In this document: positions 4,675 to 31,871 of the stretch, piece by piece
Position numbering within the stretch: position 1 is the first letter of the stretch
Layout: every line of letters begins with the position of its first letter
Assembly (NCBI GenBank): GCA_964393545.1
Contig: CAYMUB010000058.1
Span: 12,297 to 76,296 of the forward strand
Source of the DNA: an uncultured Gammaproteobacteria bacterium
GTDB taxonomy: Bacteria; Patescibacteriota; Microgenomatia; Daviesbacterales; UBA10151
Direction of reading: 5' to 3'
Length of the DNA stretch: 64,000 bases
Position numbers and translations under genes: made by a program
Notes under the pieces: generated by a model
What the model saw: the letters and a program-made list of their open reading frames with translations, nothing else
Told to the model about the DNA's origin: nothing
The model's database searches: none

Positions 4675-5775
4675 TCAATCATGAGTCTGTTTAGAAATAT
4701 TCAAAAGTATTCCAACTGCTGTAAGGTTGGCAACTAAAGCTGATCCGCCATAAGAGATAAAAGGTAATGGCACACCGGTCAAAGGTAATAAAGCAATCAT
4801 GGAGGATATATTTATTACAATTTGAATCCCCAACCAGCAGGTTAACCCTAAAGCCAGAATTTTTCCAAAATTATCTGGACAATTCTGTGATATCTTAAAT
4901 CCCCTGAAAATCATTATTAAAAATAAGCTGAGTAAGAAAGTAGCTCCCAAAAATCCTAACTCCTCTCCAATAACTCCAAAAATAGAATCAGTTGATACTT
5001 CTGGAATATATTCAAACTTTTGTCTTGAATGACCTAAACCCAAACCAAACAATCCTCCTGATCCTAGAGCTATTAAAACCTGTGAAATATGATAAGTATA
5101 TCCCTGTGGATCAGAAAAAGGATCTAAAAAAGCCAAGATTCTTTTACTTCTATAACTAGAGGTAGAGATTAAGAAAAAAAGAGTTGCCGCTACAACCGGT
5201 AAACTAACTAGAAAGTGCCAGAAAGGAGCTTTGGCAGCAAAGTACAAAAAAGCAGCTGTGGTTACAAATACAATAGTCGAACCCAAATCTTTTTGCAAAA
5301 CAGCTGTCACAAATGATATTCCTCCTATCAAAATCAAAAAAGGTAATAGTTTAGCTTTCTTTTCAAAAACTGCCGATAGAAAAATTACTCCTGTCAGTTT
5401 TATAATCTCTGCTGGTTGAATTGTAATAGAACCTAACCTTAACCATCTATGCGCTCCCCCACTTGATACCCCCAGTCCGGGAATAAAAACTGCCATAAGC
5501 ATCAAAAAGGATAAAAGTACCAAAGGTAAAGAATAAATTTTAAACTTCTTGTAATCAAATACAATAAAAAAGATCATGGAAAATATACCTAAAACCACCC
5601 AAATCAACTGCTGTCTAATATAGTAATAACTGTCTTTAAAATCCTTTAATCCCTGAATAACTGAGGCATCATAAACCATGATTAAACCAAAAACTACTAA
5701 AATTAAAATACTTACTAAAAGGGGTAAATCAACTCCTGTTTTTTGCGTAGCATAAGAAACTTTAAGATTTCTCAT
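4675..5775 (-). CDS. ftsW: SEDS-family peptidoglycan glycosyltransferase FtsW/RodA
   Basis: The protein is a 10-TM SEDS protein positioned after mraY. The start is placed at the internal Met (MRNLK...) at 5775, which makes an ATGA overlap with the mraY stop. The longer ORF running to 5862 would overlap mraY by 91 nt. Confidence 0.8.
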   Translation of the reverse strand: MRNLKVSYATQKTGVDLPLLVSILILVVFGLIMVYDASVIQGLKDFKDSYYYIRQQLIWVVLGIFSMIFFIVFDYKKFKIYSLPLVLLSFLMLMAVFIPGLGVSSGGAHRWLRLGSITIQPAEIIKLTGVIFLSAVFEKKAKLLPFLILIGGISFVTAVLQKDLGSTIVFVTTAAFLYFAAKAPFWHFLVSLPVVAATLFFLISTSSYRSKRILAFLDPFSDPQGYTYHISQVLIALGSGGLFGLGLGHSRQKFEYIPEVSTDSIFGVIGEELGFLGATFLLSLFLIMIFRGFKISQNCPDNFGKILALGLTCWLGIQIVINISSMIALLPLTGVPLPFISYGGSALVANLTAVGILLNISKQTHD

Positions 5776-6782
5776 TTTGAAAGAAGGGCTATCCAAAGAC
5801 CAAGTATGGCAAATAGCCCTTGCGCTAACCAGAATCTGGCAACTATTTTTGGCTCTTCCCAACCAATATATTTAAAGTACATATGTAATGGTAAAACAGG
5901 CAGAATTTTTCTTTTGAATATTTTTTTAGAAAGAATTTGAAGCAATGAGGAAACAATAATGATAACAAACATTCCTCCAATAGCAGCTAGAGCTAGTACT
6001 TTACCAGTAAGCAATCCAACTACAGCCAGAGTGGCGCCAAAGCCAAAAGCTCCTGCATCACCCAAAAAAATCCTGGCCGGCCAGACGTTGAAATAAAGAT
6101 ATGCAAAAAGTAGTCCAATCCAAATTCCAATAAATGAGGCCAGCGTTAAATCTAAAGCTTGAGAAGTAAGAGCCAAAAAAGCAAATAAGCAGATTAATAA
6201 CAGGCCTGAGGCCAGCCCATCCAGTCCATCTGAAATATTATAGGCATTAGCAAAAGAGATTATAATAAATGCAGCCAAAGGTATAAACCAAAAATTAATA
6301 ACAAAATTCCCCAAGCCCGCTATGTAAAAATTATTCAAACCCGCCCAAAAATATAACATGGCAGCGATGGTAAAGGCCAAAACAAGCTGAATAATAAACA
6401 TTTTTCTCCTGCCCAAACCTAAAAACTTCCCTTTTCTTCTGGTTAGAATAAATTTAATATCATCAGATAATCCCAAGAGACCAAAAGATACCAGAGTAAA
6501 AAGCAGTATCTTCAGACTAATTTTATCAATAGAAGAGTTTAAAAAAGCATATCCAACACTTAAAACTACCAGAATTAAGATTAATAATATTCCACCTCCT
6601 GAGGGAGTATCTTCATCTTTTTTCATTAATTGATCATGAATTGGAGTTTCACTTATTTTTAGAGCAGCTTTTTGTTTCTTTTCAAATCTGTGTTTTAAAT
6701 AAAAAAGTAGATCAATAAAAGGCACCATGAATATACTGGTGGTGATAAATGAGAGTAAAACTAAACCTAAAAGTTGCGTCAT
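5772..6782 (-). CDS. mraY: Phospho-N-acetylmuramoyl-pentapeptide transferase MraY
   Basis: It carries the MraY/WecA signature NAYNISDGLDGLASG and is a multi-TM protein. Confidence 0.9.
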   Translation of the reverse strand: MTQLLGLVLLSFITTSIFMVPFIDLLFYLKHRFEKKQKAALKISETPIHDQLMKKDEDTPSGGGILLILILVVLSVGYAFLNSSIDKISLKILLFTLVSFGLLGLSDDIKFILTRRKGKFLGLGRRKMFIIQLVLAFTIAAMLYFWAGLNNFYIAGLGNFVINFWFIPLAAFIIISFANAYNISDGLDGLASGLLLICLFAFLALTSQALDLTLASFIGIWIGLLFAYLYFNVWPARIFLGDAGAFGFGATLAVVGLLTGKVLALAAIGGMFVIIIVSSLLQILSKKIFKRKILPVLPLHMYFKYIGWEEPKIVARFWLAQGLFAILGLWIALLSK

Positions 6783-7915
6783 TGTTTTTTAGCTATTCTT
6801 TTAACTACTTCATCAAGTCTAACTGCTTTTGAACCCTTTATCAAACATACATCACCTTTTCCTAATATTTTTAGCAACTTACCAACCAACTGAGAATTTT
6901 GCAGATTAGTCTGTAATTTTTCATCCCAAAATCCTAAACTGAGAAGTTCATCAGCTATTATTTTTGTATCACCCTGGCCTAAAATTACTAGATCAATTTT
7001 TTCCTTATATATTATTTGAGCAATCTGCCTATGTAAGGCATCAGAATATTTACCAAGTTCTTTTATTTCCCCCAAAACTAGGATTCTACGTCTGGCTGGT
7101 ACTTTCAAAAGTGTATCTATAGCAGCTTCAATATCAGAAGGTGAAGAATCATATGAATCATCTAAGATAATCGAACCATTTGGACCCAGGATTGCTTGCA
7201 ACCTGTGTTCTTGGGGTAAAACAGACTCTAAAGCAATCTTTATTTTTGTCAGAGGAATATCACAAGAAACTCCCAAAGCAGCAGCAGCCAAAGCTGGATA
7301 AACCTGGTGTTCTCCCAGGAGTTGATAGTTTACCTTGACTCTTTCAACTCCTAAATTCAATTCAAATGTAGTTCTAAAATCTTCAATTTTAATATTATCT
7401 GCCCAAACAGTACATTTTTGGGGATCAGTACCGAAATAAATAATAGTTCCTTTACACTTATCTGCTAATTTTTTGGAGTTTGGATCATCCCAATTCAAAA
7501 TAGCCACCCCGTTTGCAGGAAGTTGTTCTATTAATTTACCCTTCTCATCCAGTATTTCATTTAAATCACTTAAAGATTCAGAATGTGGATATGAAATCTT
7601 GGTAACAATAACTGTATTGGGTTTAACTTGTGATAAATAAGAATCCATTTCTCCTTTATATTCAATCCCCATCTCTAAAATAACTTTCTTAACTTGGGGA
7701 GAAAGTTTTAACAAAGTTTGGGGAATATTGGACATAGAACTTGAGTTAGAAGCTGTTGTAATGGTTTTAAATCTTTGTGACAGAACAGCTAAAGAAGCTC
7801 TTACACAAGTAGTCTTACCTATTGATCCAGTTACACCAATAAATAAACTTTTAGAATATAACTTGGTATATTGCCTGGCCAGATATGTTCTTAGAATGTT
7901 TAGAGGCTGATCCAC
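6779..7915 (-). CDS. murF: UDP-MurNAc-tripeptide--D-Ala-D-Ala ligase MurF (compact)
   Basis: It has the Mur ligase P-loop GVTGSIGKTT and the MurF-type C-terminal motif LDDSYDSSP (compare DDSYNANP). It lies immediately upstream of mraY. Confidence 0.75.
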   Translation of the reverse strand: MDQPLNILRTYLARQYTKLYSKSLFIGVTGSIGKTTCVRASLAVLSQRFKTITTASNSSSMSNIPQTLLKLSPQVKKVILEMGIEYKGEMDSYLSQVKPNTVIVTKISYPHSESLSDLNEILDEKGKLIEQLPANGVAILNWDDPNSKKLADKCKGTIIYFGTDPQKCTVWADNIKIEDFRTTFELNLGVERVKVNYQLLGEHQVYPALAAAALGVSCDIPLTKIKIALESVLPQEHRLQAILGPNGSIILDDSYDSSPSDIEAAIDTLLKVPARRRILVLGEIKELGKYSDALHRQIAQIIYKEKIDLVILGQGDTKIIADELLSLGFWDEKLQTNLQNSQLVGKLLKILGKGDVCLIKGSKAVRLDEVVKRIAKKQ

Positions 7916-11060: not shown

Positions 11061-11384
11061 GTGAATATAGTGATTAAGAAATTAGTTTGGGATGAATGGA
11101 ATGTAGCACATATCGCACACCATGAGGTTTTACCGGAGGAAGTGGAAGAGGTATGTCGGGCAACATTTGTTGCCTATGAAAGCTACGATGAGAGATTTGA
11201 GATTATTGGATCAACCAAACAGGGAAAAATTCTATTGATTGTCCTCGATCCTGAGAGAGCCGAAGGAGAGTACTACGTAGTAACCGCTCATACGGCAAAT
11301 AAAAAAGATCGGGCGCTATATAAATTGAGAATAATAAATAAGAAAGAAAAAGGAGGTGGACAAAATGACGAAGCAGAAAAGTAA
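11061..11384 (+). CDS. brnT: BrnT-family type II toxin (DUF497 ribonuclease toxin)
   Basis: WDEWNVAHIAHHEV...VTAHTANKKDR matches the BrnT/DUF497 signature. It uses a GTG start and overlaps the next gene by 29 nt, as TA operons often do. Confidence 0.7.
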   Translation: MNIVIKKLVWDEWNVAHIAHHEVLPEEVEEVCRATFVAYESYDERFEIIGSTKQGKILLIVLDPERAEGEYYVVTAHTANKKDRALYKLRIINKKEKGGGQNDEAEK

Positions 11385-11643
11385 AATACCGATATTTAAA
11401 AATCGTCAGGAATTGGCAGCGTTTTGGGATACACACGATGTTGCAGATTTTAAAGATGAGCTAAAACCAGTTGATATCCACTTTGATCTGGGAAAACCCA
11501 AGGAAGAAACGGTGATGTTCCGATTAGACAGAGGAGTGAAGCAGTACCTTGCTCAGCTTGCAAGAAAGAAAGGGTTAAGTACGTCAAGTTTGCTTAGGAT
11601 GTGGATTATGGAAAAATTTCATCAACTGCAGCAAGCGCACTAA
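11356..11643 (+). CDS. brnA: BrnA-family antitoxin (RHH-like C-terminus)
   Basis: This small protein follows brnT. Its C-terminus GLSTSSLLRMWIMEKF resembles the BrnA/CopG-like DNA-binding tail. The toxin-first order is characteristic of brnTA. Confidence 0.6.
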   Translation: MDKMTKQKSKIPIFKNRQELAAFWDTHDVADFKDELKPVDIHFDLGKPKEETVMFRLDRGVKQYLAQLARKKGLSTSSLLRMWIMEKFHQLQQAH

Positions 11644-13796: not shown

Positions 13797-14668
13797 GTTT
13801 TTCTAAATATTCTTAATTTTGCTGACCTGGACCTGATGTTTTTTTCAACTTCTTCGTCTTTGGGTGTAATTGGTTTTTCAGTTAAAACTTTACCCCAACT
13901 TTTCTCTTCCCACTCTCTAAAAGATAATTTAACGATCCTATCTTCAAGTGAGTGAAAACTAATGACACTAATACAACCATTTTTTGCTGTTAAATCTATT
14001 ACTTGCTTTAATCCTTCCCTTAAAGCATCCAATTCATCATTCACTGCTATTCTCAGTGCCTGAAATACCCGGGTAGCCGGATGTATCCCTTCCTTATTAC
14101 CTCCCACCACTCTCTCTACAACCTTGGCCAGTTGTGTTGTAGTTGAAAAGGTTTCTACTTCACGGGCGCGCACCAAAGCGCCAGCCAAATCCCAAGAATA
14201 TTTTTCTTCACCAAAGTTGTTAAATAATTCATATAACTCCTTTCTTGATAAGATCTTTATTAAATCCAAAGCCCTGACATTTAAGCTTGGATCCATTCTC
14301 ATATCCAAAGGCCCATTCTTTGAAAAAGAAAAACCTCTTTCCCCAGTCTCAAGTTGCAGACTGGAAACCCCCAGATCAAATACCACACCTTTAAACTCCT
14401 GATCCAAAAGTAAATTTTTAAGATCTCTAAAATTACCTTTAATTAATCTAAACCTATTCTTATCTATCTCCGCTTTTTCAAATCTTTTTTCCACTCTCTC
14501 TAAAGCCTGGGGATCAACATCTATTCCAACAACATTTCCTCCTAATCTTAAAATTTCTAAACTATGTCCCCCATCACCCAAAGTACAATCCAAATACCAT
14601 TTCTCTTTTTCAACCTTTAAACTATCTATTACTTCTTTGAGAAGAACGGACCTATGATATCCTTCCAT
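13793..14668 (-). CDS. rsmH: 16S rRNA (cytosine1402-N4)-methyltransferase RsmH/MraW
   Basis: MEGYHRSVLLKEV...DCTLGDGGHS is the canonical RsmH N-terminus. It is the second gene of the dcw cluster. Confidence 0.9.
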   Translation of the reverse strand: MEGYHRSVLLKEVIDSLKVEKEKWYLDCTLGDGGHSLEILRLGGNVVGIDVDPQALERVEKRFEKAEIDKNRFRLIKGNFRDLKNLLLDQEFKGVVFDLGVSSLQLETGERGFSFSKNGPLDMRMDPSLNVRALDLIKILSRKELYELFNNFGEEKYSWDLAGALVRAREVETFSTTTQLAKVVERVVGGNKEGIHPATRVFQALRIAVNDELDALREGLKQVIDLTAKNGCISVISFHSLEDRIVKLSFREWEEKSWGKVLTEKPITPKDEEVEKNIRSRSAKLRIFRKT

Positions 14669-15068
14669 TGCGGTACTCTCCTTCTATTATTTTGATATGT
14701 TTTTCCCAAAGTTTTAATTCCCAGATTTCAAAATGATCTCCTGCGCCAATAATTACTACTTCCTTTTTAACTTGAGCAAAATCCAACAGGTTAGATGGTA
14801 TGATAATCCTACCTTGACCATCCAACTCCACAGATTCACTTCCCGAAAATAAATACCTTCTCAAAAATCTGGCCCGTTCTTCTGTTGCAGAAATCTCCAG
14901 TTGCTTTTGTGCCTCTTTTTCAAATTCTTTTACATCAAATCCCCAAATGCAACTTTCAAATCCCCTGCTTAAAATAATTTCTAAACTTGTCAGTTCTTGC
15001 CTAAATTTACGCGGCAAGACAATTCTTCCCTTTCCCGAGAATTTTGTCTGATATTTACCCAAAAACAT
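14652..15068 (-). CDS. mraZ: Transcriptional regulator MraZ
   Basis: MFLGKYQTKFSGKGRIVLPRKFR is the MraZ/SpoVT-AbrB-type N-terminus. The tandem DUF199 organisation is present. It is the first gene of the cluster. Confidence 0.85.
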   Translation of the reverse strand: MFLGKYQTKFSGKGRIVLPRKFRQELTSLEIILSRGFESCIWGFDVKEFEKEAQKQLEISATEERARFLRRYLFSGSESVELDGQGRIIIPSNLLDFAQVKKEVVIIGAGDHFEIWELKLWEKHIKIIEGEYRNGRIS

Positions 15069-15102
15069 GAGGTCATCCTCTTTTCTGGGCAGATATCATG
15101 AG

Positions 15103-15133
15103 GCTTTCACCTCTTTTCACCATCTGTAACCAT
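15103..15133 (-). promoter_or_regulatory. Candidate MraZ operator: three direct repeats at 10-bp phasing upstream of mraZ
   Basis: The minus strand reads TGGTtacagaTGGTgaaaagaGGTGaaag. These are three (T/A)GGTG-like repeats spaced by 10 bp, 35-65 nt upstream of the mraZ ATG. A TTGACA on the minus strand lies at 15157-15162. Confidence 0.35.
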
Positions 15134-15154
15134 TCTCCGCCATTTTAATATTAT

Positions 15155-16714
15155 TTGTCAATAGGTAAGATGAATCTGATCTCAAGAAATGTTATTATTC
15201 ACCCTGTGAGCAAGATAAATAATATTGAACGTTTTGGTTACCACCAGGATGGATCATTTGAATCACTTGGGACAGCAGCACTTAAACTTCGTTTATCTGC
15301 TGATAAACCTATAACAAAAGCAGTTCCTCCTGAAATTGAACTTCAAATCTCCAGAGGTATACTCACACCTACTGATACTGAATATATAAGAGCCATTTTG
15401 CAAAGGACTCCTGAAGTTGCCAGCAGTGCAGGCTATCTTTTGCAGGGAATTGAGACCCCAGCAGCTAGAAGAAAAATTGCAGAACGTAATTCTCAAGCTC
15501 ATATTGACCTGGGTCAGCTACTAAGTCCCTTTTCTGAAAAAGAGAAGGCAATTCTTACTCAAAATTTAGGTGAGTTTCAGCTTACTGACGGCTGTACTGT
15601 GGGCTGTGCCTGGTGTGGTGTAAATGCTTTGAGGAGAACAACAACCGCCTTTAGTTTACAGTCAGTTGTCAAATTTGCCCATGAGTATGGAAACTTATCA
15701 AAAAATGCTGGTCTATATTCAGCTTCTGACCCTTTTGATTGGGTTGAAGGAGATTATACTTATTTAGATATTCATGCAGTTTGGGGAATCTATAGCAAGT
15801 CAGAACCATTTGTTAGCACCGCTGTCCCATTGGGAACAGAATTTTCAATATTAAGATTTGTAGAAGCACAGTATGAAGCGTTAAGAAAATCTTCCATTTT
15901 AGATGGAAGCAATTTCAGATTTTCCCGGACTGATAGAAATGCAGAAAGAGTTGATCAGATGCTTAATATACTTCGGTTAAGAGGACTTAATGAAGATTTT
16001 CTCAATACGATTAGGATCAGCGACGTAAGTGATAAGAAAGTTGCTCATATAGGCTATTTTATTAATCATCGAGATAGAGATGATATTTACGATAATCCCG
16101 GAATTACATGTAAAGACTGCATTGTCATTACCCCATCAGCAATTCGAGGAAAGACAATGGAAGCATACACAAAAACAAGCCCAAAAGGTATGCGGGAATG
16201 GACAATAGCTCCTGGAGAAATGCAGGTTCCAGTCTATAGAATAAGACAAGACTATTATGGTTCTGACTTTGCAGAAAATCAGGATGTAGGAACAGTACCT
16301 TTTTCCATTTTGCCCGATGTTAAAATTCTTCATGTAAAAGATGGTGAGGTTGTAGATGAAGAAGTAGTACGATCAATAGGTAGGACTGCTTTAGCTTTTT
16401 GTTTCACTGCTTGGAATATGCATGATCTTGGTGCAAAGCTTACTTCAGATCAGGTAGATTATTTCCTAAATAATTTCCCCGGAGGATTAAGATCTATTGA
16501 GAAACATCTTATTGATTTTGAAAGAAGATATCTTACGATGAAAGATGAATCAACTCCTCTACTTGATGATCCAAATCAAATAGCTATAAAAATTGCAAGG
16601 GAATATGAAAGCATGACTCGTGGAGAACTAAGAAACGCAAAAAAAGCAGTAGAAACACTTAAAAAAAGAAGAAGAACTTTCTTAGGTTTACAAACCCCTA
16701 TTCCTTATTATTGA
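15155..16714 (+). CDS. Hypothetical protein with a CxxxCxxC motif and a downstream GGE-like motif. It is a candidate divergent radical-SAM-type enzyme with an N-terminal extension of about 140 aa.
   Basis: DGCTVGCAWCG lies at residues 145-155 (nt 15593-15616). SASDPF follows about 40 residues later, a GGEP-like position. The ORF opens with TTG at 15155, and the more likely start is the ATG at 15170 (MNLISRN...). Its GC content is higher than that of neighbouring genes. Confidence 0.5.
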   Translation: MSIGKMNLISRNVIIHPVSKINNIERFGYHQDGSFESLGTAALKLRLSADKPITKAVPPEIELQISRGILTPTDTEYIRAILQRTPEVASSAGYLLQGIETPAARRKIAERNSQAHIDLGQLLSPFSEKEKAILTQNLGEFQLTDGCTVGCAWCGVNALRRTTTAFSLQSVVKFAHEYGNLSKNAGLYSASDPFDWVEGDYTYLDIHAVWGIYSKSEPFVSTAVPLGTEFSILRFVEAQYEALRKSSILDGSNFRFSRTDRNAERVDQMLNILRLRGLNEDFLNTIRISDVSDKKVAHIGYFINHRDRDDIYDNPGITCKDCIVITPSAIRGKTMEAYTKTSPKGMREWTIAPGEMQVPVYRIRQDYYGSDFAENQDVGTVPFSILPDVKILHVKDGEVVDEEVVRSIGRTALAFCFTAWNMHDLGAKLTSDQVDYFLNNFPGGLRSIEKHLIDFERRYLTMKDESTPLLDDPNQIAIKIAREYESMTRGELRNAKKAVETLKKRRRTFLGLQTPIPYY

Positions 16715-16718
16715 TAAA

Positions 16719-17618
16719 CTACTTCCTAGGGATTAAGACTGTAAATATGCCTGCTCCATCTGATTTGGCAGATAATTTACTTCCATCTATTTTTGTATCT
16801 AATTCCTTCCATTCACTTTTGTTGGGATTGTATCTATATATTTTGGCATCTGAAGTGGGATTTTCTGCTAACTCTATTGTAATTGCTCCTCCAGGTAAAT
16901 CCTTAGCCAAAGGAATATTCAATGAATAAACCTTACCCAATATAGATTTACCTGAAGGAAGTTTTGGTAAACCTGTTAAATCATTAATTATGGAAAAACC
17001 AACATTTGATAAAGCTGCTCTGTCAGCATCTACTTTATAAATTAAATGTCCGTCTCCTGAGGAAAGTAAGCCCAATGCCACATCTGGTTGTTGTAAATGC
17101 CATTGAGTATTCATTTTGTAAACATTATTCCCTTTTTTGATGTGTAAAGTTAAAGTACCGTTTTCTACGCCTTTATCATATTTACAAACATTTTTAGAAC
17201 AGGTCCCAAACAGGATTTCCTGCTCATATTCACCTTTTTTTTCTTTTGCATCAATTGTACCCACTACCCCTCTATCTATAGTGCCTGCCTTTGACTGTCC
17301 CTCTCCATCCTCTGAGATCTTGTTACCCTTAACTATAATTTCATCAACTTTGCTGGTATAGGCCAGCTCATATGAAATAGCATCATAGCTGGAAGTTCTT
17401 TTTAAATTTAAAATAACTGCATTACCATCACGCCTGGGAGATAAAATTGCATACGGCCCTTCACTGTCAAAGGTTAAACCAACCTCCTCAACAGGGACTG
17501 TAGGTTTGCCAGTAAGTTGCACAGCAGCGAACCAACCCAAAATCCCTAAAATCAAAAAACCTGCAGCCAGCATCACAGTTATTTTATGGGATTTAATCCA
17601 GGCAGTTATATTTTCCAC
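16719..17618 (-). CDS. Hypothetical membrane-anchored or secreted protein
   Basis: It has an N-terminal signal-anchor helix (ITVMLAAGFLILGILGWFAAV) and a Gly/Lys/Asp-rich soluble domain. No recognisable catalytic motif was found. Confidence 0.55.
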   Translation of the reverse strand: MENITAWIKSHKITVMLAAGFLILGILGWFAAVQLTGKPTVPVEEVGLTFDSEGPYAILSPRRDGNAVILNLKRTSSYDAISYELAYTSKVDEIIVKGNKISEDGEGQSKAGTIDRGVVGTIDAKEKKGEYEQEILFGTCSKNVCKYDKGVENGTLTLHIKKGNNVYKMNTQWHLQQPDVALGLLSSGDGHLIYKVDADRAALSNVGFSIINDLTGLPKLPSGKSILGKVYSLNIPLAKDLPGGAITIELAENPTSDAKIYRYNPNKSEWKELDTKIDGSKLSAKSDGAGIFTVLIPRK

Positions 17619-18911
17619 TTAGGTATATATTTTATCAGATAAAAAGGTAGACAAGTCAACTATCTTCACCCTGTCTTGTTTGGCAGTATCTCTATTTCTC
17701 ACAGTTACCATTTGATCTTCTAATGTTTGAAAGTCAACTGTGATGCAAAATGGTGTTCCAACCTCATCTTGAGATGCATATCTTTTACCAATATTACCTC
17801 TGGCATCCCAGGAAGTTGTAAAACTCTTTTTTAAAGTTTGATATACCTCCCTTGCCTTATCTATTAACTCGGGTTTATTGGCAAGCAAGGGAAAAACAGC
17901 TGCTTTGTATGGTGCTAGTTTTGGATTAAGTTTTAGAAAAATTCTCCCCTCTTCTTCTCTATAAGAATCAAGTAACACCACCAAAACTGATCTATCAACC
18001 CCCCAGGTTGGTTCAATTACATGAGGAGTAAATTCTTCCTGAGTCTCTGGATCCTTATATTTTACATTATGATTTGTTAGATCAAAATCTCCCCTGTATG
18101 CCAATCCGTATAACTCGCTTGTCCCAAATGGAAAATCATACTCAAAATCAATGGTTCTTTTAGAGTAATGAGCCCTCTCTGTATCTCCAATTTCTTTCTC
18201 ATGGACTTTGCTTATATCTATTCCTAAATCTTCTTTAATCCAGGATAAAATCTCTTTTCTCCATATTTCAAATGGACCTTGCCAGTCTGCCTCATTTTGT
18301 GGAGGGGGAATAAAATATTCAATTTCCATTTGTTCAAATTCTCTGGTCCTAAAAATAAAATTTCCCGGAGTTATTTCATTTCTAAAAGCCTTACCAATTT
18401 GAGCAATTCCAAAAGGCAACCTTAATCTTTGAGTATCTAATATATTTTTAAAATCAATGAAACTTGCTTGAGCTGTTTCTGGTCTAAAATAAGCAATATT
18501 GGCTGACTCCTCTGCAGGACCAATAAATGTTTTAAACATTAGATTAAACATTTGCTCTTTTGTAAAAGAATCTTTTTCTCCGCAGTTTGGACAGATATTT
18601 TCTTTTATATGATCTGCCCTAAAACGGGCATGGCATTTTTTACATTCCACTAAAGGATCTTGAAAATTTGCCACATGCCCTGATGCTTCCCAAACTTTAG
18701 GATTCATAATTAATGCAGCATCAAGTCCTACAATATCATCTCTCAAATGCACAAACTTTTTCCACCAAGCTTGTTTAATATTATTTTTAAGTTCCACCCC
18801 TAAAGGACCATAGTCCCAAGAATTGGCCAGCCCTCCATAGATCTCAGAACCAGGAAATATAAATCCCCGGCGTTTGCATAAAGCCACAATTTTTTCCATC
18901 AAGTCATTCAT
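17619..18911 (-). CDS. glyQS: Glycine--tRNA ligase (alpha2 GlyQS type)
   Basis: RGFIFPGSEIYGGLANSWDYGPLG is the class II GlyRS N-terminal signature. The length fits the dimeric GlyRS. Confidence 0.9.
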   Translation of the reverse strand: MNDLMEKIVALCKRRGFIFPGSEIYGGLANSWDYGPLGVELKNNIKQAWWKKFVHLRDDIVGLDAALIMNPKVWEASGHVANFQDPLVECKKCHARFRADHIKENICPNCGEKDSFTKEQMFNLMFKTFIGPAEESANIAYFRPETAQASFIDFKNILDTQRLRLPFGIAQIGKAFRNEITPGNFIFRTREFEQMEIEYFIPPPQNEADWQGPFEIWRKEILSWIKEDLGIDISKVHEKEIGDTERAHYSKRTIDFEYDFPFGTSELYGLAYRGDFDLTNHNVKYKDPETQEEFTPHVIEPTWGVDRSVLVVLLDSYREEEGRIFLKLNPKLAPYKAAVFPLLANKPELIDKAREVYQTLKKSFTTSWDARGNIGKRYASQDEVGTPFCITVDFQTLEDQMVTVRNRDTAKQDRVKIVDLSTFLSDKIYT

Positions 18912-19561
18912 GATAATTTCTTTAAAAACTGTCTGCTTTTTAAAGCTCCTTCAATTACTCTTTCTAAATAATATCTCAATACGCTCTCAAGTTCCATAGC
19001 TTCTTTCTCATTTATTTTTAACTGCTCAATAGAATCCCAAGACATACCTTCCAAATCCCTTAATATATTCTTCACATTTAAGCTTACACTTTCCAGGTGT
19101 GAATCTAAACTTTCTTGGAAATTGGCAAAACCCATCAAAGATAAAATCCTTACCTCAAAAGCTCTGATAAAAATCTGTCTTGGTTTTTGTTCTAATTTTT
19201 TTAATACTTGAGTCAGATTAAAATACAGATTAGAACTTTCTTGGTTTTCTGCAGTTAATTTATCAACTAATTCTAAAATGTGGAAAGACACAGTTGATAA
19301 AGTTAAATCTTCTTTAAGCTTTGAGTAGGTATCTAAACTTACTGCCTCAGTTAAAATAGGCATGCCTTTGGTTTGATGTAAAAAAATAGATACTCTATTA
19401 AGCAGTTCAACATTCCCTGCTCTTCTTGAAGTAATTCTCCTAACTCCTTTTGCCAAAATAGAAATCTTCCCTCTATCTTTTGAAAATACAGTTAATATTC
19501 TATCTGCTTCCCCAAAATTCCTTCTCTTGAGTACTATCCCTTCTGTCTTAAATCCTCTCAT
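18908..19561 (-). CDS. recO: DNA repair protein RecO
   Basis: EGIVLKRRNFGEADRILTVFSKDRGKI matches the RecO N-terminal OB fold. The adjacency to glyQS is conserved. Confidence 0.75.
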   Translation of the reverse strand: MRGFKTEGIVLKRRNFGEADRILTVFSKDRGKISILAKGVRRITSRRAGNVELLNRVSIFLHQTKGMPILTEAVSLDTYSKLKEDLTLSTVSFHILELVDKLTAENQESSNLYFNLTQVLKKLEQKPRQIFIRAFEVRILSLMGFANFQESLDSHLESVSLNVKNILRDLEGMSWDSIEQLKINEKEAMELESVLRYYLERVIEGALKSRQFLKKLS

Positions 19562-19970
19562 GGAAGGGATTTATAACTTTAAGTTCAGATATTTTTTTAA
19601 AATCTCTGATATTATCTGTTGCGATTACATTTATGTCATTACTCAACGTTGTTGCCACTAAGTAGGCATCGAATATTTCATCAGCTGAAAGTTTATACTT
19701 TTTAATCAATTGTAAAGCGATTTGATGTGTACGATAATCTGGAGAAATTATTCTGCAACTTTTTAATATACTTTCCACCACCTCTATGGCTTTATTTATC
19801 TTCATAGGCGAGGGAAATTTTGGATGTGTAAGCACTCTGAGAGTTTCAAAAATGTTTTGATGGGCAACTTCCAAATTCCCGGTATTCTTTTGTAAAAAGT
19901 TTTGGGCCTGTTTATGTTTTGGAGAGGAAATATTGATTGAGTAAATTAAGATATTTGAATCAATCAGCAT
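19548..19970 (-). CDS. vapC: PIN-domain ribonuclease toxin VapC
   Basis: MLIDSNILIY is followed by the acidic residues Glu (FETLRV), DAYLVAT and DNIRDF that make up the PIN quartet. It is preceded by a small RHH gene. Confidence 0.7.
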   Translation of the reverse strand: MLIDSNILIYSINISSPKHKQAQNFLQKNTGNLEVAHQNIFETLRVLTHPKFPSPMKINKAIEVVESILKSCRIISPDYRTHQIALQLIKKYKLSADEIFDAYLVATTLSNDINVIATDNIRDFKKISELKVINPFHERI

Positions 19971-19974
19971 TTTT

Positions 19975-20217
19975 TTAAGGCTTAGGATAGTAATCCGCCC
20001 GCTTAAGGTTATCTAACGGTTCTCCTAAATCATGAGTCTTGAAAACTATTTTCTTGGCTTCTTTTTTAGCCTCGTTTTCTAGATAATATTCCAAAGCGCA
20101 GTTAAAAACCTGCTGCAGGGTAACATCATCTTCCAAAGCTTTATGTTCTGCGCCCTTTTTCAAGTTTTCCTGAATCCGGAGAGTAGTTCTTACTAACATA
20201 TAGATTAATTTTGTCAT
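19975..20217 (-). CDS. vapB: VapB-like RHH antitoxin
   Basis: This 80-aa protein has TTLRIQENLKKGAEHKALEDDVTLQQVFNCALEYYLE, which is RHH-like. It lies 4 nt upstream of vapC. Confidence 0.55.
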   Translation of the reverse strand: MTKLIYMLVRTTLRIQENLKKGAEHKALEDDVTLQQVFNCALEYYLENEAKKEAKKIVFKTHDLGEPLDNLKRADYYPKP

Positions 20218-25527: not shown

Positions 25528-26711
25528 TTTCTACCCAATTCTTCATAAATCTTACTTAAATTCTTTGCAATGGGATCCCAATCATATTTTTCTAAAACCT
25601 TTTCTTTAGCATTGTTTGCAATTTCCTGGTATAACTTTTGGTTATTCAAAAGGTTTACCGCTGCTTTTGCGATTTCTTGGGGAGTATCTCTAATGATAAC
25701 TTCTTTTCCATCCTTAACATTAGTTCCTCTTATTCCAATGGAGGTTGTTACAACAGGTAAGCTGGATGCAAAAGCTTCAAAGTTTTTATAACGGGTTCCC
25801 CCACCGCCATAAATTGGCGCCACTAAAACAGAGGCTTGTTGATAAACTTCTCTTACATCAGAAACTTCATCAACCCGGATATTGTCTGATTCAAGATTCA
25901 AGAAAAAATCCTTAGCATCCTTACCAATTATCCATAATTTAGCATCAGGAATACTTTTTAAAATATCAGGCCAGACTTTAGAAATTAATACTTCTACTGC
26001 TTCTCTATTTTGCAACCAGGTAAAATTTCCCAAATAAAGAATTACTGGGGATTTTGATTTCTCTTTAATTTTTTTTCCAAAATAATTGCTATCTACACCA
26101 TTCGGTACAATATCAACATGAAGTGATGGCAGTTGGAATAACATTGATTTTTTATCTTCCTCAGACATAGCAACAACCCTACTCGCTCTTTTCCAATATT
26201 TAAGCTCCCAATGTTTCATTTTTGCTACATCAATATATAAAAGTTGTTTTATTCCGGGCAATTTATAGCTGTCTGCAAAATGGCGGTAAACTAGATATTC
26301 AATGGTTTGCTCAACCAGCAGTATTGGGATTTTAGTTTTTGGGATATGTGGCATAACATAAAAAGTTTCAGCATGAATTAAATCAAAATCTTCTTCTTTT
26401 AATTTTTTTTCAATACCTAAGCGTTCACCTTTTGCCCAATTTCTGATTACTAAAAATGGATAAAAACTTAAACCGGTTTTGAGAATATTTTTTAAAGTCC
26501 AAGGCTTCTCTGGCCGGTTAAACACCTGCACTTCTTTGCAAAACTTTTCCAGTTCTGAAACATATTTTCTTTCACTGTTATTTTTCACTAAACAAAAAAG
26601 TGTAATCTGATGTCCTAGAGATGAAAGTCTTTTTATTAAATTGTATGACCTGGTCTGCCCTCCTGTTAAAAGCGGGTAAGGCAGGTATGGTGTCAGCATT
26701 AAAATCTTCAT
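25524..26711 (-). CDS. Glycosyltransferase family 4 (GT-B)
   Basis: MKILMLTPYLPYPLLTGGQTRSYNL is followed by a C-terminal GT1 domain. Confidence 0.8.
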   Translation of the reverse strand: MKILMLTPYLPYPLLTGGQTRSYNLIKRLSSLGHQITLFCLVKNNSERKYVSELEKFCKEVQVFNRPEKPWTLKNILKTGLSFYPFLVIRNWAKGERLGIEKKLKEEDFDLIHAETFYVMPHIPKTKIPILLVEQTIEYLVYRHFADSYKLPGIKQLLYIDVAKMKHWELKYWKRASRVVAMSEEDKKSMLFQLPSLHVDIVPNGVDSNYFGKKIKEKSKSPVILYLGNFTWLQNREAVEVLISKVWPDILKSIPDAKLWIIGKDAKDFFLNLESDNIRVDEVSDVREVYQQASVLVAPIYGGGGTRYKNFEAFASSLPVVTTSIGIRGTNVKDGKEVIIRDTPQEIAKAAVNLLNNQKLYQEIANNAKEKVLEKYDWDPIAKNLSKIYEELGRK

Positions 26712-28162
26712 GGTTCCGGATCAGCTGTTAATGGTATTTTAATCTGAGTTAAATCAGCAATAACAAATTTTGGATTATCTTCTAAAACCTTAAAGTGTCT
26801 AATCACCCAGTTTGTCTTGTCATCTCTGGAGGTAGATATATAGTTGGTAACTCCAAAATCCGCCACCAGCTCGGTCAAAGGAAGAGCAGTGACAGGCCAA
26901 CCAGCCCGGTTGGTTTGGTACAAAAAAGCAGTATCACCATTATAGGGCGCAACTACAATTGCCTCTTTTTTAAGTATCTGGTCTGCTCTCTTTCCGGCTT
27001 CCATTATCACCGGGTTATTAATCTTATAAAACTCTTTTACCTGATTCCAGCTGAAATAAAATGAAAGAGGTAGAAATAACAAGGCTAAAAGAATAGTCCA
27101 AATCCTGGGCAGAAAATTAGGTAATCCATTTATTAAGGAAATAAAACCCTGACTAAAAAACACAGCGATAATTGGCACAGAAATATACTGATAGTAATTA
27201 TGCCGGACATTACCTGTAGCAAAAATAATATAATAGGCAAACATCGATAACATCCAAACATGCAAAAAATAATTTCCATTTTTCGGTTTGATAAGCAGTC
27301 CTAGAATAAAAAGCGCAAACCCTGTTACGCCCAATATTTCCCTACCCAATCTCTCCGAAACTAACCACCACCAAAAACTAGGCCTAAAACGAATGTGGTC
27401 TCCGTTCATCAGCCATCCTGAGGCAGGAATACCTTGAGGTTGTTGCAAAATCCAAAACCTCCAGGCTATAAAAGGCAAAAGCGCCAAAACAATAAACCAA
27501 AATTTTTTGGGAATTTTAAATCCATACTTTGATAAAACTGAATAAATTAAGGGGGGTGTAAAAAAGATGGCCCATGGTTTTATTAAGAAAGCAATTGCAG
27601 TAAAGATAAACCCGGCAATCCCTATCCGCCATCTGGCGGACCAAATCCATTTATCAACAAAATAAACCATTCCTAAAACGAAAAAAAGAAAGGTAGGTTC
27701 AGGTAAAGTTGTTCTGGAGAAGAAAACATTGAATGGCAATAATGCGTACAGAAATGATGTTATAAGAGCAGAAACCTTTCCCAAATATTTTTTACAGATT
27801 AAATACAAAAAGGCAATACTGCCTAAGGAAAATAGAACTGATACTAAACGGGAGTATCTATCTTCTACACCAAAGAACAAATACAGTGGGTAAGTTGCAA
27901 TATTATATATGGGAAATTCTACAAATCTAAAGGTATTAGGGTTTACAATTGGTGTTTCTGAGACTCCTGACATATCATCGTAATGGGGCATTAAAGGATT
28001 AAACCCATTCTTGATAAAGTTTCTCGTAACAGCTGCTGTATCTGCTTGTCTCCATGAATGCCAATCAGCAATAGGAGCATCAATCTTATATAGCCGCACA
28101 GCAAAAGCTAAAGCTAGAATCAAAATTAACCATAGATATTCATTTTTTAGTAGCTTAATCAT
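26708..28162 (-). CDS. GT-C fold membrane glycosyltransferase, ArnT/PMT_2 (GT39/GT83-like)
   Basis: AVRLYKIDAPIADWHSWRQADTAAVTRNF is the characteristic first-loop motif of polyprenyl-phosphate-sugar-dependent GT-C enzymes. The protein has about 12 TM helices. Confidence 0.7.
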   Translation of the reverse strand: MIKLLKNEYLWLILILALAFAVRLYKIDAPIADWHSWRQADTAAVTRNFIKNGFNPLMPHYDDMSGVSETPIVNPNTFRFVEFPIYNIATYPLYLFFGVEDRYSRLVSVLFSLGSIAFLYLICKKYLGKVSALITSFLYALLPFNVFFSRTTLPEPTFLFFVLGMVYFVDKWIWSARWRIGIAGFIFTAIAFLIKPWAIFFTPPLIYSVLSKYGFKIPKKFWFIVLALLPFIAWRFWILQQPQGIPASGWLMNGDHIRFRPSFWWWLVSERLGREILGVTGFALFILGLLIKPKNGNYFLHVWMLSMFAYYIIFATGNVRHNYYQYISVPIIAVFFSQGFISLINGLPNFLPRIWTILLALLFLPLSFYFSWNQVKEFYKINNPVIMEAGKRADQILKKEAIVVAPYNGDTAFLYQTNRAGWPVTALPLTELVADFGVTNYISTSRDDKTNWVIRHFKVLEDNPKFVIADLTQIKIPLTADPEP

Positions 28163-29618
28163 AGTCTTTAATACTTTGTACTCCCAAATTCATTCCCAAC
28201 ATCATCCAAAAAAGAGCTGCCACTTTTGATGCTTCAAAAACATCAATGAATAATCCGTTAATAATAAATGCCACCATCATAGAAAAAACTCCGGCAGAAA
28301 AGAAGCGTACTAACTTATTATTCTTTTTTAACCCTGTTAAAATCCTTTTAGAAACCTCAATAAAAATGAGTATTAAAGATACTGTACCCAGTAGTCCTGC
28401 TTCACCTAAAGATCTTAAAAAGTCATTATCTGTTGCAATGTCAATTGAAGAATAACCGGTTCCCAAAAATGGATTTTTCATAAGGGCCCTAATAGCTCTT
28501 GGCCACTCTATATTTAACCTAATTTGTAGTGATCTATATACACCAAGTTGCGTAGTATCAATCGGCTCTCCGGGGGTTATATCTGTTGCAATACCTCCTG
28601 ACGGAGAGGCAAAACTGGAAGCAGATGCTGAGCTACTGGATGTCTTTACAGCCAGGGTAGGGATATTTAGCTTACTTCTTACTTTTTGATCAACTGTCTT
28701 ACCCTGGTATCTTTGCCCCCAATTAAGAACATTTATTGTTATGGTGGAAATAAATCTATCACGGAGCTGTGATGGGTAAACAAGAATAATAATAACAGAG
28801 ATGATTAAAAGCAGAATATATTTTCTCTTTTTGGAAAAAACTAAGGCTAAAATTATTCCAATAAAAGTTGCGACAAATGATTGCCTGGCTGCAGTCATAA
28901 TTAAAGTAAGCAGAGAAACCCCACCCAGCATACTCATTGGAATTCTAAATCTTTTTTTCAGCGAAAATGATAAAGCAATTAAAACTACAATTGACATGCT
29001 TAAAAAAACAGCAAAATCATAATGCCCAGCAAAGGTTGAGCTTACTCTGGCTCCGGGAGTAAGTCTTAAGATTAGACCCTTGGAAAATTCCGAATTGGTG
29101 GTGGAGATAACCGGCCAATCTAAATATTGTTGGCCCAAAGCATAAATATTAGCCAGTAAAATCACCATTCCCAAAGTAATCAGGACAACAATAAATCTTT
29201 TTCTGGTAGTTAGAACAGTTGCCACAATTGGCAACAAAATAATAAATTCCACTCTTCTTAAAAAATGAAAAATACTTAAGTGTGGAGTAACAGAATGAGT
29301 TAAAAAAATTGCTGAAAAAGTTGAAACAATACCCACAAAGAAAAAAAGCAAAATAGCCTGAATCAGTTTATCATTTAAGATAGCTTTAATTTTATTTAGC
29401 TTTATCAGGTAAAAACCCCAGATTATAACTGTTAGAGCAATAAAAAAATCTTCCAGTCTAACTGCCACAAAGGTTCCTTTTATATTAATCAAAGGGAATT
29501 TAGGGTATAGAGGAATAAATACAAAAAGAAACAAGACTAAAAAGAATAAAATTTGGTTTATTCCTTTTATTGGACTATGTATTACTACTTTTTGGTCAAA
29601 ATATTTAAGTATGGCCAT
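28155..29618 (-). CDS. O-antigen ligase/polymerase (Wzy/WaaL)-like polytopic membrane protein
   Basis: It has more than 10 TM helices and a large loop rich in Ser/Ala (SSSSASASSFASPSGG). Its position is in the polysaccharide locus. Confidence 0.55.
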   Translation of the reverse strand: MAILKYFDQKVVIHSPIKGINQILFFLVLFLFVFIPLYPKFPLINIKGTFVAVRLEDFFIALTVIIWGFYLIKLNKIKAILNDKLIQAILLFFFVGIVSTFSAIFLTHSVTPHLSIFHFLRRVEFIILLPIVATVLTTRKRFIVVLITLGMVILLANIYALGQQYLDWPVISTTNSEFSKGLILRLTPGARVSSTFAGHYDFAVFLSMSIVVLIALSFSLKKRFRIPMSMLGGVSLLTLIMTAARQSFVATFIGIILALVFSKKRKYILLLIISVIIILVYPSQLRDRFISTITINVLNWGQRYQGKTVDQKVRSKLNIPTLAVKTSSSSASASSFASPSGGIATDITPGEPIDTTQLGVYRSLQIRLNIEWPRAIRALMKNPFLGTGYSSIDIATDNDFLRSLGEAGLLGTVSLILIFIEVSKRILTGLKKNNKLVRFFSAGVFSMMVAFIINGLFIDVFEASKVAALFWMMLGMNLGVQSIKDYD

Positions 29619-30166
29619 TATGAAAGTATCTTTCTGCCTAATCTATAGGTATAAAGAATGGATAAACAGATACTAAACCAGACGATTAATCTAACAAAGA
29701 CAGATGAGGGGTAAAATCTTATAGTTGTTTTGGTATACCAATCTTTACCCCCTTCACTAAACTTAGAAGATCCCCAAAATTTGGGAGAACCATCTTCATA
29801 AAAAGGTTCCAGACCATTCACGTATAATGAATCTCTTAATGGGTAAACAAACTCTTCTAAGAAAGTTGAGTCTGTATGTTTCTTGATCACATTCCAGGAC
29901 ACCTCCGGCGGATGGTTTAATCTCATTGGTGGAAAAGGTAATAAAGTTTTCTGAAAATAATTAGTGCGGTAGAAGTAAGTTACAAAATTACGGTATTTAT
30001 TTGAAAAATATCCTGCCACATTTGGTACTTGAGCTACATTATCACCGGCGAGGGTGGATTTATAAGAATCCGGCAATTGTTTAAAAACAGAAATTGAACC
30101 TGGACCAGGCCAAAGCATATACAATAAAAATAATCCTGCAAAAGTCAGATACAATTTTTTGATCAT
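29618..30166 (-). CDS. Hypothetical bitopic membrane protein
   Basis: It has an N-terminal and a C-terminal hydrophobic segment and no recognisable motifs. Confidence 0.45.
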   Translation of the reverse strand: MIKKLYLTFAGLFLLYMLWPGPGSISVFKQLPDSYKSTLAGDNVAQVPNVAGYFSNKYRNFVTYFYRTNYFQKTLLPFPPMRLNHPPEVSWNVIKKHTDSTFLEEFVYPLRDSLYVNGLEPFYEDGSPKFWGSSKFSEGGKDWYTKTTIRFYPSSVFVRLIVWFSICLSILYTYRLGRKILS

Positions 30167-30786
30167 TGAAATAATCTAGCTCTGCCTAATTTATAGTGGG
30201 GATCTGTTAATTTTCTTTCCCCGATTACTTGGGCTGGTACACCACCCACTATGGCAAACTCTAGCACATCTTTAGTCACTACAGCTCCTGCTGCCACAAC
30301 TGCTCCTTTTCCAATCCTTACGCCTGCCAGAATAATTGACCTGGGTCCGATAAAAACATAATCTGCTATTTCCACTGAATCCAAACTAGCCTGAAAATCT
30401 TCAGAATTTAAATCATGTTCAGAGTTATAGATCATCACTTCAGATGCAATATCTACATGATTGCCTATGATCAAAGTGTCCCTTCCATCCAGAAAGACAT
30501 TCATGCCTATAATGGAATCTTCACCAATTTTTATTTTTCTTAAAGAAAAAAAACGACCGCCCATATGAATACTTGAACCCTTACCAATTTTTGCTCCTCC
30601 GAGACGCATTATAAAACGGCGCAAATGATGTGAAGGAAGATTTACCAGTAGATGAATAAGAAATAAACCAAGGTCCGCCAAATAATTATACAATCTAGTG
30701 GTTCCTTTCTGGTGAACTTGCTTTAAGGAAAGCTCTTTTCCCATCCTGTCATGAAAAATGGACATAATTAGATTATAGCAGTTCAA
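30163..30786 (-). CDS. Hexapeptide-repeat (LbH) sugar O-acetyltransferase
   Basis: Left-handed beta-helix repeats are present: IGKGSSIHMGGRF...IGNHVDIASEVMIYN...GVRIGKGAVVAAGAVV. Confidence 0.75.
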   Translation of the reverse strand: MNCYNLIMSIFHDRMGKELSLKQVHQKGTTRLYNYLADLGLFLIHLLVNLPSHHLRRFIMRLGGAKIGKGSSIHMGGRFFSLRKIKIGEDSIIGMNVFLDGRDTLIIGNHVDIASEVMIYNSEHDLNSEDFQASLDSVEIADYVFIGPRSIILAGVRIGKGAVVAAGAVVTKDVLEFAIVGGVPAQVIGERKLTDPHYKLGRARLFQ

Positions 30787-31870: not shown

Positions 31871-31871
31871 A

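Follow-up and report, generated by a model that had tools for sequence, protein, structure and literature searches.

The window analysed here is the whole 64,000-nucleotide stretch at positions 12,297 to 76,296 of contig CAYMUB010000058.1 (GenBank assembly GCA_964393545.1; uncultured Gammaproteobacteria bacterium; GTDB lineage Patescibacteriota, Microgenomatia, Daviesbacterales, UBA10151), and the subject of this work is a gene on its forward strand whose product resembles the radical S-adenosylmethionine (SAM) enzymes. An uninterrupted open reading frame (ORF) runs from 15155 to 16714 in the mechanical ORF list and yields 519 amino acids from a TTG codon, as a preliminary description made from the sequence alone had reported. 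The ORF is real, but its start is more likely to be ATG 15170, because an AGG(T) Shine–Dalgarno-like motif lies just upstream of this codon and the resulting 514-residue product is identical to the database protein P0001. Residue numbers are given throughout in the 519-residue numbering from TTG 15155. The gene is the sole forward-strand ORF within a run of reverse-strand genes extending from about 11.8 to 45 kb. It is divergent from mraZ (14652–15068), which is followed on the reverse strand by rsmH, ftsL and a penicillin-binding protein gene, and it adjoins both the dcw cell-wall cluster and a gene for a membrane-anchored protein, with gaps of 86 bp upstream and 4 bp downstream (Table 1). 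A promoter scan of the 86 bp shared with mraZ gave nothing above shuffle expectation. The convergent downstream gene had been thought to encode a secreted or anchored protein, and its product does begin with a hydrophobic, membrane-anchor-like segment. A GC content above that of the neighbours had also been claimed; this could not be upheld, since GC is 0.372 in the ORF and 0.362 and 0.369 in the genes on either side (z = 1.1 among the 58 ORFs of the window), and GC3 is below the mean. A compositional anomaly or recent transfer was rejected on these values. Scans of the whole window for tRNA genes and Rfam families gave no match, and PADLOC and PHROGs, consulted with regard to anti-phage defence and phage origin, returned no family match for the protein.

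Table 1. Features of the radical SAM-like gene, its product and its immediate surroundings, in window coordinates.
Feature	Position	Strand	Remarks
Divergent intergenic region shared with mraZ, 86 bp	15069..15154	.	Too short for a precursor gene
Radical SAM-like protein gene, 514 aa (amino acids)	15170..16714	+	ORF; ATG with upstream AGG(T); identity to P0001
N-terminal, mostly helical region, residues 6–137	15170..15565	+	AlphaFold2 (AF2) model; family-specific, unaligned to the PoyD N-terminus or to PqqD/RiPP recognition elements
Putative radical SAM core, residues 138–305	15566..16069	+	AF2 alternating beta/alpha; hhalign to PoyD family; weak PF04055/TIGR04517 matches
CX3CXPhiC motif CTVGCAWC (C147, C151, C154; aromatic W153), residues 147–154	15593..15616	+	Predicted ligands of the SAM-binding [4Fe-4S] cluster
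SASDPF, residues 189–194, after second strand	15719..15736	+	Proposed GGEP counterpart; aligns with ATDPLD of PoyD-type enzymes
STAVPLGTE, residues 221–229, third strand	15815..15841	+	Aligns with QTTTAQ of PoyD-type enzymes
RFSRTDRN, residues 255–262, fourth strand	15917..15940	+	Aligns with NRFSVLTE of PoyD-type enzymes
Beta-rich region, residues 313–405	16091..16369	+	AF2 strands 320–405; part up to G345 homologous to PoyD-type enzymes
GITCKD, residues 316–321, with C319	16100..16117	+	Candidate hydrogen-atom donor; C319 in 124/148, D321 in 130/148 members
C-terminal long-helix region, residues 408–510	16376..16684	+	AF2; family-specific; no Cys-rich SPASM/twitch motif, only C416
Convergent 299-aa membrane-anchored protein	16719..17618	-	No Pfam/NCBIfam match; syntenic neighbour only

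The CX3CXPhiC motif characterizes the radical SAM superfamily, in which it supplies the three Cys ligands of the SAM-binding [4Fe-4S] cluster. The preliminary description had located this triad, within DGCTVGCAWCG, exactly, and had named loss of the three Cys in homologues as evidence against a radical SAM enzyme. Conservation was counted here over 148 diverse family members, each of at least 330 residues: C147, C151 and C154 are invariant (148/148), and 140 of them have F, W or Y at position 153, just ahead of the third Cys. A CxxxCxxC pattern arose in 92 of 200,000 random placements of six Cys in 514 residues (~5e-4); given these odds and the invariance of the three residues, the triad is far beyond chance. 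Four further near-invariant motifs follow it, namely SDPFD, STAxP, RxSxTxxN and GIxCxDG. SASDPF, proposed earlier as the counterpart of the GGEP motif, is present, but it lies one base further along than had been stated and 35 rather than about 40 residues past the triad; D192 is conserved in 147/148 members, P193 in 139 and S/T191 in 140. In the next two motifs, T222 (148/148), P225 (147), G227 (143), R255 (142), S257 (146) and N262 (143) stand out, as do the glycines G300 (145) and G345 (143). With STAVPxGxE, RFSxTxxN, G300, GIxCxD, G345 and R410 conserved at 84–100% across the family, the C-terminal half is not devoid of motifs, contrary to what had first been thought.

The family to which the protein belongs is large and uncurated. 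An initial search returned 17 relatives, all of them lacking a recorded Pfam domain, and an exhaustive profile search of cluster representatives returned 576 at E <= 1e-3, 397 at E <= 1e-10 and 149 at E <= 1e-30, so that the family comprises at least 576 clusters at 50% identity. An indexed search with a diverse alignment (A3) added no further proteins. The public names of the members that were looked up are 'hypothetical protein' or none; where a source is named, it is either a Patescibacteria group bacterium or a Candidatus Woesearchaeota archaeon, and Candidatus Daviesbacteria and Curtissbacteria provide the nearest genomic loci. Members that could be placed belong to the Candidate Phyla Radiation (CPR)/Patescibacteria, together with one DPANN archaeon. 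Pattern-limited scans gave eight genomic and 12 metagenomic loci, of which half are true PoyD loci. None of the papers in the collection searched describes a PoyD-like family in CPR organisms.

The relationship to PoyD emerged from profile comparisons. Weak matches to Radical_SAM (PF04055) were found in 15 of the 17 close homologues, and the recurrent best NCBIfam match of the family is TIGR04517, the PoyD-type 'radical SAM family RiPP maturation amino acid epimerase' model (RiPP, a peptide made on the ribosome and modified after translation), with scores of 17–48 bits in the other matching members, the archaeal P0121 being the strongest (E 7e-13). Six true PoyD-family genes from the genome scan, which score 475–500 bits against the TIGR04517 cutoff of 325, were aligned as A2. 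Against A2, hhalign gave 97.9% probability (E 6e-13, 152 columns) with the 17-sequence family alignment and 99.1% (E 2e-18, 206 columns) with the 148-sequence alignment, pairing residues ~132–350 of the window protein with 129–369 of the PoyD-like sequences. Motif by motif, QLTDGCTVGCAWCG of the window protein stands opposite PoyD-type ELTDGCTVGCWFCG, LYSASDPFD opposite CYWATDPLD, STAVP opposite TTTAQ, FRFSRT opposite NRFSVLT, NPGITCKDC opposite PGTIACVSG, and P.G opposite WPLGY. The family shares with PoyD, OspD, AvpD and PlpD (TIGR04517) the order of the core motifs and a near-identical wording of them, which can be written (Q/E)LTDGCTVGCxWCG, Y(W/S)A(T/S)DP(L/F)D, (T/S)T(T/A), RFS and PG..C..G. 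The PoyD-type enzymes and the window protein also have in common some 130 residues ahead of the triad and an overall length of about 500 amino acids. The central idea of the preliminary description, that of a divergent radical SAM enzyme, is borne out by the invariant CX3CXPhiC, the weak Radical_SAM matches and the hhalign probabilities, and we regard it as very probable that the protein is a true, highly divergent member of this superfamily. With nearly as much confidence we place the family as a sister to the proteusin epimerases. The enzyme's family had been called not obvious from its motifs; 'sister family of proteusin epimerases' can now stand in place of that statement.

In the predicted structure, strands and helices alternate from residue 138 to 305. 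The full-length AF2 model, built from the 17-sequence alignment, has a pLDDT of 80.9 and a pTM of 0.82, with the triad in a poorly ordered loop behind its first strand; a further model, of residues 105–410, agrees with it. The best Foldseek match of the full model was BtrN (PDB 4m7t; probability 0.85, 166 columns, TM 0.42 on the target), which at E = 0.47 is not significant, and SkfB, LipA and anSME were within the top 15. The BtrN match is compatible with a shortened partial barrel, and no sequence relationship to BtrN was detected. BtrN itself carries an auxiliary cluster and acts on a sugar. PDB sequence and profile searches with the window protein gave only sub-significant radical SAM matches, and the top six hits of the diverse family profile included YydG (0.02), GDGT-MAS (0.031) and SkfB (0.073), again sub-significantly. 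These results bear on the alternative that the protein falls outside the radical SAM enzymes altogether, with a fold of other descent that resembles the superfamily superficially and a triad that binds some other cofactor or a structural metal. The sub-threshold scores of all curated models and the lack of any significant Foldseek or PDB sequence match would fit this alternative. The negative structure searches, however, carry little weight, because in a control the true PoyD profile likewise found no radical SAM structure in the PDB by sequence; nor did our PDB searches turn up a solved structure of a PoyD/OspD-type epimerase. An unrelated fold would, moreover, have to account for the 206-column alignment with proteins that pass the TIGR04517 cutoff, and for the co-conservation of the triad spacing, the aromatic residue and the four downstream motifs in the PoyD-type order. 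We therefore give this alternative hardly any credence.

The N-terminal extension had been likened to a RiPP recognition element, which in its PqqD-like form is a winged-helix domain with a three-stranded sheet. No match to PqqD (PF05402) was found in the window protein at E <= 10, and its N-terminus has no Pfam or NCBIfam match. In the AF2 model the ~135 residues ahead of the core are almost wholly helical, with helices at residues 20–136; apart from single bridge residues, the only strand is a short one at 115–117. The RiPP-like clusters of relatives described below encode a separate PqqD protein. A recognition element in the N-terminus finds no support in this evidence, and the idea was rejected.

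The fourth conserved Cys suggests what the enzyme might do. According to a review, an alignment of ~70 PoyD homologues contained a single strictly conserved Cys, Cys372, which is the proposed hydrogen-atom donor, a role supported by the C372A mutant (PMC8326336). In 116 PoyD-family proteins examined here, C336 (L012 numbering) is the only Cys besides the triad to be kept in 116/116, C355 and C244 being kept in 110 and 102. Because it is the sole non-cluster Cys kept in all of these homologues, C336 is presumably the equivalent of PoyD Cys372, and hhalign aligns C319 of the window protein with it. In the alignment, PoyD-type enzymes and the window protein both have a conserved Cys outside the cluster at this position, and the flanking Asp and the Gly equivalent to that of WPLGY are conserved between the two groups; PoyD's second well-conserved Cys (ISPC) is absent from the window protein.

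Proteusin epimerases lack the twitch auxiliary cluster, which sets them apart from YydG/EpeE (PMC13012085), and a single [4Fe-4S] site with no twitch or SPASM domain is likewise predicted for the window protein. In SPASM/twitch RiPP maturases, a Cys-rich domain at the C-terminus binds one or two auxiliary [4Fe-4S] clusters. In the window protein only C319, C322 and C416 of the six Cys follow the triad, no SPASM or Fer4 Pfam match appeared even at E <= 10, and there is no Cys-rich C-terminal motif; judged by this complement, the protein cannot form a twitch-type auxiliary cluster. In this it differs from YydG/EpeE (PDB 8ai1–8ai6), which is its best radical SAM match of solved structure by sequence (E 0.02–0.11, not significant, ~50 residues at the cluster loop) and for which the same logic has been proposed, that is, abstraction of a C-alpha hydrogen and return of a hydrogen from a protein Cys (PMC13012085).

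An epimerase-type mechanism is suggested because the donor Cys is aligned and an auxiliary cluster is lacking. In such a mechanism, C147, C151 and C154 would hold a [4Fe-4S] cluster that binds SAM and cleaves it reductively, the resulting 5'-deoxyadenosyl radical would take a hydrogen atom, most likely the C-alpha hydrogen, from a peptide or protein substrate, and C319 would give a hydrogen atom back from the opposite face to leave a D-residue. For the window protein we infer cluster binding, SAM cleavage, a peptide substrate and epimerization, and the particular course of SAM cleavage at the triad cluster, C-alpha abstraction and hydrogen return by C319 is put forward tentatively, as plausible rather than probable.

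The surroundings of relatives give a mixed picture. The closest relative, at locus L018 (45% identity), lies in the same block of mraZ (62%), radical SAM gene, 299-residue protein (68%) and glyS (63%), and the radical SAM gene is the fastest-evolving of the four (L018 711–4248 against window 14652–18911; 45% versus 62–68% identity). A conserved pairing with the downstream gene at 16719–17618 had been suggested for checking. A relative of that gene was found beside a family homologue in L018 only and beside no other, and since the whole block is syntenic there, a functional gene pair is not supported. In Candidatus Daviesbacteria UBA9644 (L010/L020), a 41%-identical homologue lies inside a glycosyltransferase cluster. 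The backbone of this cluster is syntenic (60–74% protein identity) with the long glycosyltransferase/polysaccharide cluster at 26708–37899 on the reverse strand of the window, and it has taken up the homologue together with three additional genes (513, 231 and 232 aa), so the radical SAM gene has moved relative to a conserved backbone. The Curtissbacteria homologue is found beside a Wzy_C gene, yidC, rnpA and dnaA. In L009, the family member P0006 is followed by a 46-residue Lys-rich ORF (7617–7757, with a good Shine–Dalgarno motif) and then by a LytR_C protein; this small ORF, MGSFGGFYKGEKKKKKKTTDKGFAESGLGAPIFTLPKIVSKKKKQE, may supply a substrate or else encode a small basic protein with no relation to the enzyme. 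In L030 the family member is again a lone opposite-strand gene, adjoining gatCAB and uvrB, and the neighbours in L008, L032 and the P0052 locus show nothing telling. At L031 4253–7389 (Candidatus Woesearchaeota), P0121 is directly downstream of a second, unrelated Radical_SAM protein of 531 residues.

Such neighbourhoods raise the alternative of a radical SAM enzyme acting not on a peptide but on a cell-envelope glycopolymer, a sugar or a lipid-linked intermediate, possibly by radical sugar epimerization or dehydrogenation, with export of the product by Wzm/Wzt-type ABC-2 transporters. Besides the Daviesbacteria, Curtissbacteria and L009 contexts just described, one distant member (L033) is near two glycosyltransferases and a Wzy_C protein, and the window gene itself stands beside the dcw cluster and a membrane-anchored protein. 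Radical SAM sugar epimerization has been proposed for avilamycin (PMC8326336). Envelope genes are, however, very common in the small CPR genomes, and proximity to them is weak evidence for this reason; the only specific homology that could be detected is to peptide epimerases, the donor Cys included.

Some distant members sit in gene clusters that point to peptides instead. Three loci of a distal clade (L001, L005 and L025) resemble a biosynthetic cluster: along with the radical SAM gene they have an ORF of 33–35 residues, genes for an ABC-2 permease and an ABC ATPase, and one for an S24-like peptidase, and L005 and L025 have in addition a gene for a PqqD-family protein, a peptide chaperone. 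At L007 the radical SAM gene is accompanied by genes for a PqqD protein and two QueC-like proteins and by an ABC-2/ABC pair, and in L033 a methyltransferase–radical SAM fusion stands beside a QueC-like gene, a 65-residue ORF and an ABC-2/ABC pair. The small ORFs upstream of the ABC genes in L001 (4286–4387, 33 aa) and L005 (4287–4394, 35 aa) share an identical N-terminal part of 27 residues, MKKMSAKKSYQAPKSKKEKINLFKLVG, after which they read AASVLE and TASIVTTE, respectively; the L005 peptide, near family member P0014, is MKKMSAKKSYQAPKSKKEKINLFKLVGTASIVTTE. Such a conserved leader followed by a variable C-terminus matches the leader/core pattern of RiPP precursors, the core residues being aliphatic here, and the two ORFs are good candidates for the precursors of the clustered members. 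A separate PqqD protein and a peptide of 33–35 residues distinguish these members from the proteusins, whose precursor is of the NHLP type.

The ABC pairs beside L005, L007 and L033 have their best matches to Wzm/Wzt and TagH glycopolymer exporters, far under the cutoffs (51–76 bits for the permeases against 380). Because these systems match Wzm/Wzt and TagH best and because glycosyltransferase and Wzy genes recur near members, the envelope-glycopolymer role stays a real rival; in view of the low transporter scores, the PqqD chaperones and the leader/core-type small ORF, we nevertheless consider it unlikely.

The clustered loci also bear on the kind of chemistry performed. QueC-like PP-loop ATPase paralogues (L007 7990–9887; L033 343–1338) recur beside two unrelated members; they match TIGR00364 and QatC weakly and in their C-terminal part only, and they might use ATP to activate a carboxylate or a peptide. 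In P0139 (913 aa) and P0141 (922 aa; L033 1436–4204) an N-terminal class I SAM methyltransferase is fused to the family member, its best NCBIfam match being a daptide-type RiPP methyltransferase (E 1e-16, below cutoff). Both the fusion and the recurrence of the QueC-like ATPases would suit an enzyme that modifies a peptide or protein by a chemistry other than epimerization and reuses the PoyD-like core for it, for example cross-linking, C-methylation with a partner methyltransferase, or oxidation of backbone or side chain. The remoteness of the homology, the novelty of the N- and C-terminal regions and the absence of C319 from 16% of the members fit this reading as well, and the ~19–24% identity together with the unrelated terminal regions means that the chemistry could indeed differ from that of the PoyD-type enzymes. 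Against it stand the conservation of the donor-Cys position, the flanking Asp and the WPLGY-equivalent Gly, as well as the lack of an auxiliary cluster in the window protein, whereas the SPASM/twitch maturases that form thioether or carbon–carbon cross-links usually carry one. Such a peptide- or protein-modifying enzyme of another chemistry seems quite unlikely to us.

On balance, and with moderate confidence, we favour the reading that the product of the window gene works as a radical SAM enzyme, carries one [4Fe-4S] cluster only and comes from an uncurated family that is distantly sister to the proteusin (PoyD/OspD-type) peptide epimerases. A number of observations weigh against this reading. 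PF04055 scores 16 bits (E 0.014) on the window protein, under its cutoff of 29.5, and at most 24.5 bits among ten distant representatives scanned; TIGR04517 scores 30.2 bits (E 2e-7), under its cutoff of 325. The alignable part is only ~19–24% identical to PoyD-type enzymes, and the N-terminal ~130 and C-terminal ~170 residues cannot be aligned to them (zero confidence). A Foldseek search with a trimmed model gave no significant match, TIM barrels, radical SAM enzymes and propellers being mixed among its hits. C319 is missing from 24 of the 148 members, including the Curtissbacteria protein P0008, and the closest exporter models are those for glycopolymers, as noted above. Most sampled contexts consist of housekeeping or cell-envelope genes, and no precursor-like ORF, PqqD gene or exporter gene was found near the window gene.

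For some of the same reasons the protein should not, as judged from sequence, be filed as a member of the PoyD family: it falls under the TIGR04517 cutoff and is without the terminal regions and the precursor type of that family. No NHLP or Nif11 precursor was found near the window gene or the sampled members, whereas the true proteusin locus L026 has one, and the sampled members come from CPR and DPANN genomes, the PoyD-type enzymes from Proteobacteria or Cyanobacteria. L026 (144–6005 of PVBE010523137.1) had been a candidate for a two-paralogue locus of the window family; it was rejected as a classical proteusin cluster with two PoyD-type epimerase genes, in which, read by eye, an opposite-strand ORF of 133 residues is the NHLP-type precursor and a 665-residue protein a B12-type radical SAM enzyme. 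The superfamily and the nearest chemistry were known before; the architecture of the family, its separate PqqD partner set and its taxonomic range are new.

The window gene is an orphan, like most sampled members. No small ORF adjoins it, no peptide like those of L001 and L005 occurs in the intergenic gaps of the window, and, as neither precursor, PqqD nor exporter genes are nearby, its substrate would be encoded elsewhere. The link to peptides is provided by those distant members that adjoin a PqqD gene and a small leader/core-type ORF. Orphan members, the window gene included, may alternatively be stand-alone epimerases, or related C–H-activating enzymes, that act on an ordinary cellular or envelope protein encoded elsewhere and not on a RiPP precursor. 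Such a role would explain why the gene stands alone among housekeeping genes, changes its position and evolves faster than its neighbours (45% versus 62–68%); we regard it as distinctly improbable.

Three further features of the window were noted. Two overlapping forward-strand ORFs at 11061–11643, of 107 residues (no family match) and 95 residues (CopG-type antitoxin, E 2.5e-12), split the reverse-strand dcw cluster, with the penicillin-binding protein gene on one side and the next mur-type gene on the other; no other GC3 in the neighbourhood is as high as theirs (0.33–0.42 against a mean of 0.26), and they are probably an inserted toxin–antitoxin pair. At 19548–20217 on the reverse strand, an 80-residue ORF followed by a PIN-domain protein (140 aa, E 1e-11) looks like a VapBC-type toxin–antitoxin pair; it lies downstream of glyS and a recO-like gene. 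Within 4675–6782 on the reverse strand, a MraY-like ORF (5772–6782) and the next ORF (4675–5862, TTG) overlap by 91 nt as mechanically called, and the latter probably starts later than called; an apparent ORF-free gap of 916 bp at 5863–6778 is not real, the region being mraY.

To our knowledge, no enzymes other than the PoyD/OspD-type radical SAM epimerases introduce many D-residues directly into peptides of ribosomal origin. A family of several hundred clusters that is sister to them and has no Pfam or NCBIfam model would widen the sequence space available for the mining of D-amino-acid-containing products and for the engineering of epimerases. The clustered members, with their ORF of 33–35 residues, PqqD protein, S24-like peptidase and ABC-2 exporter, constitute a directly testable system. 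In the annotation of the window gene, 'hypothetical protein' would give way to 'radical SAM protein, PoyD-like, substrate unknown'. If the orphan members were indeed stand-alone enzymes, they would amount to a system of radical post-translational modification peculiar to CPR bacteria and DPANN archaea with their reduced genomes. These organisms are usually regarded as biosynthetically poor, and the family would point to a capacity for secondary metabolism or protein modification among them.

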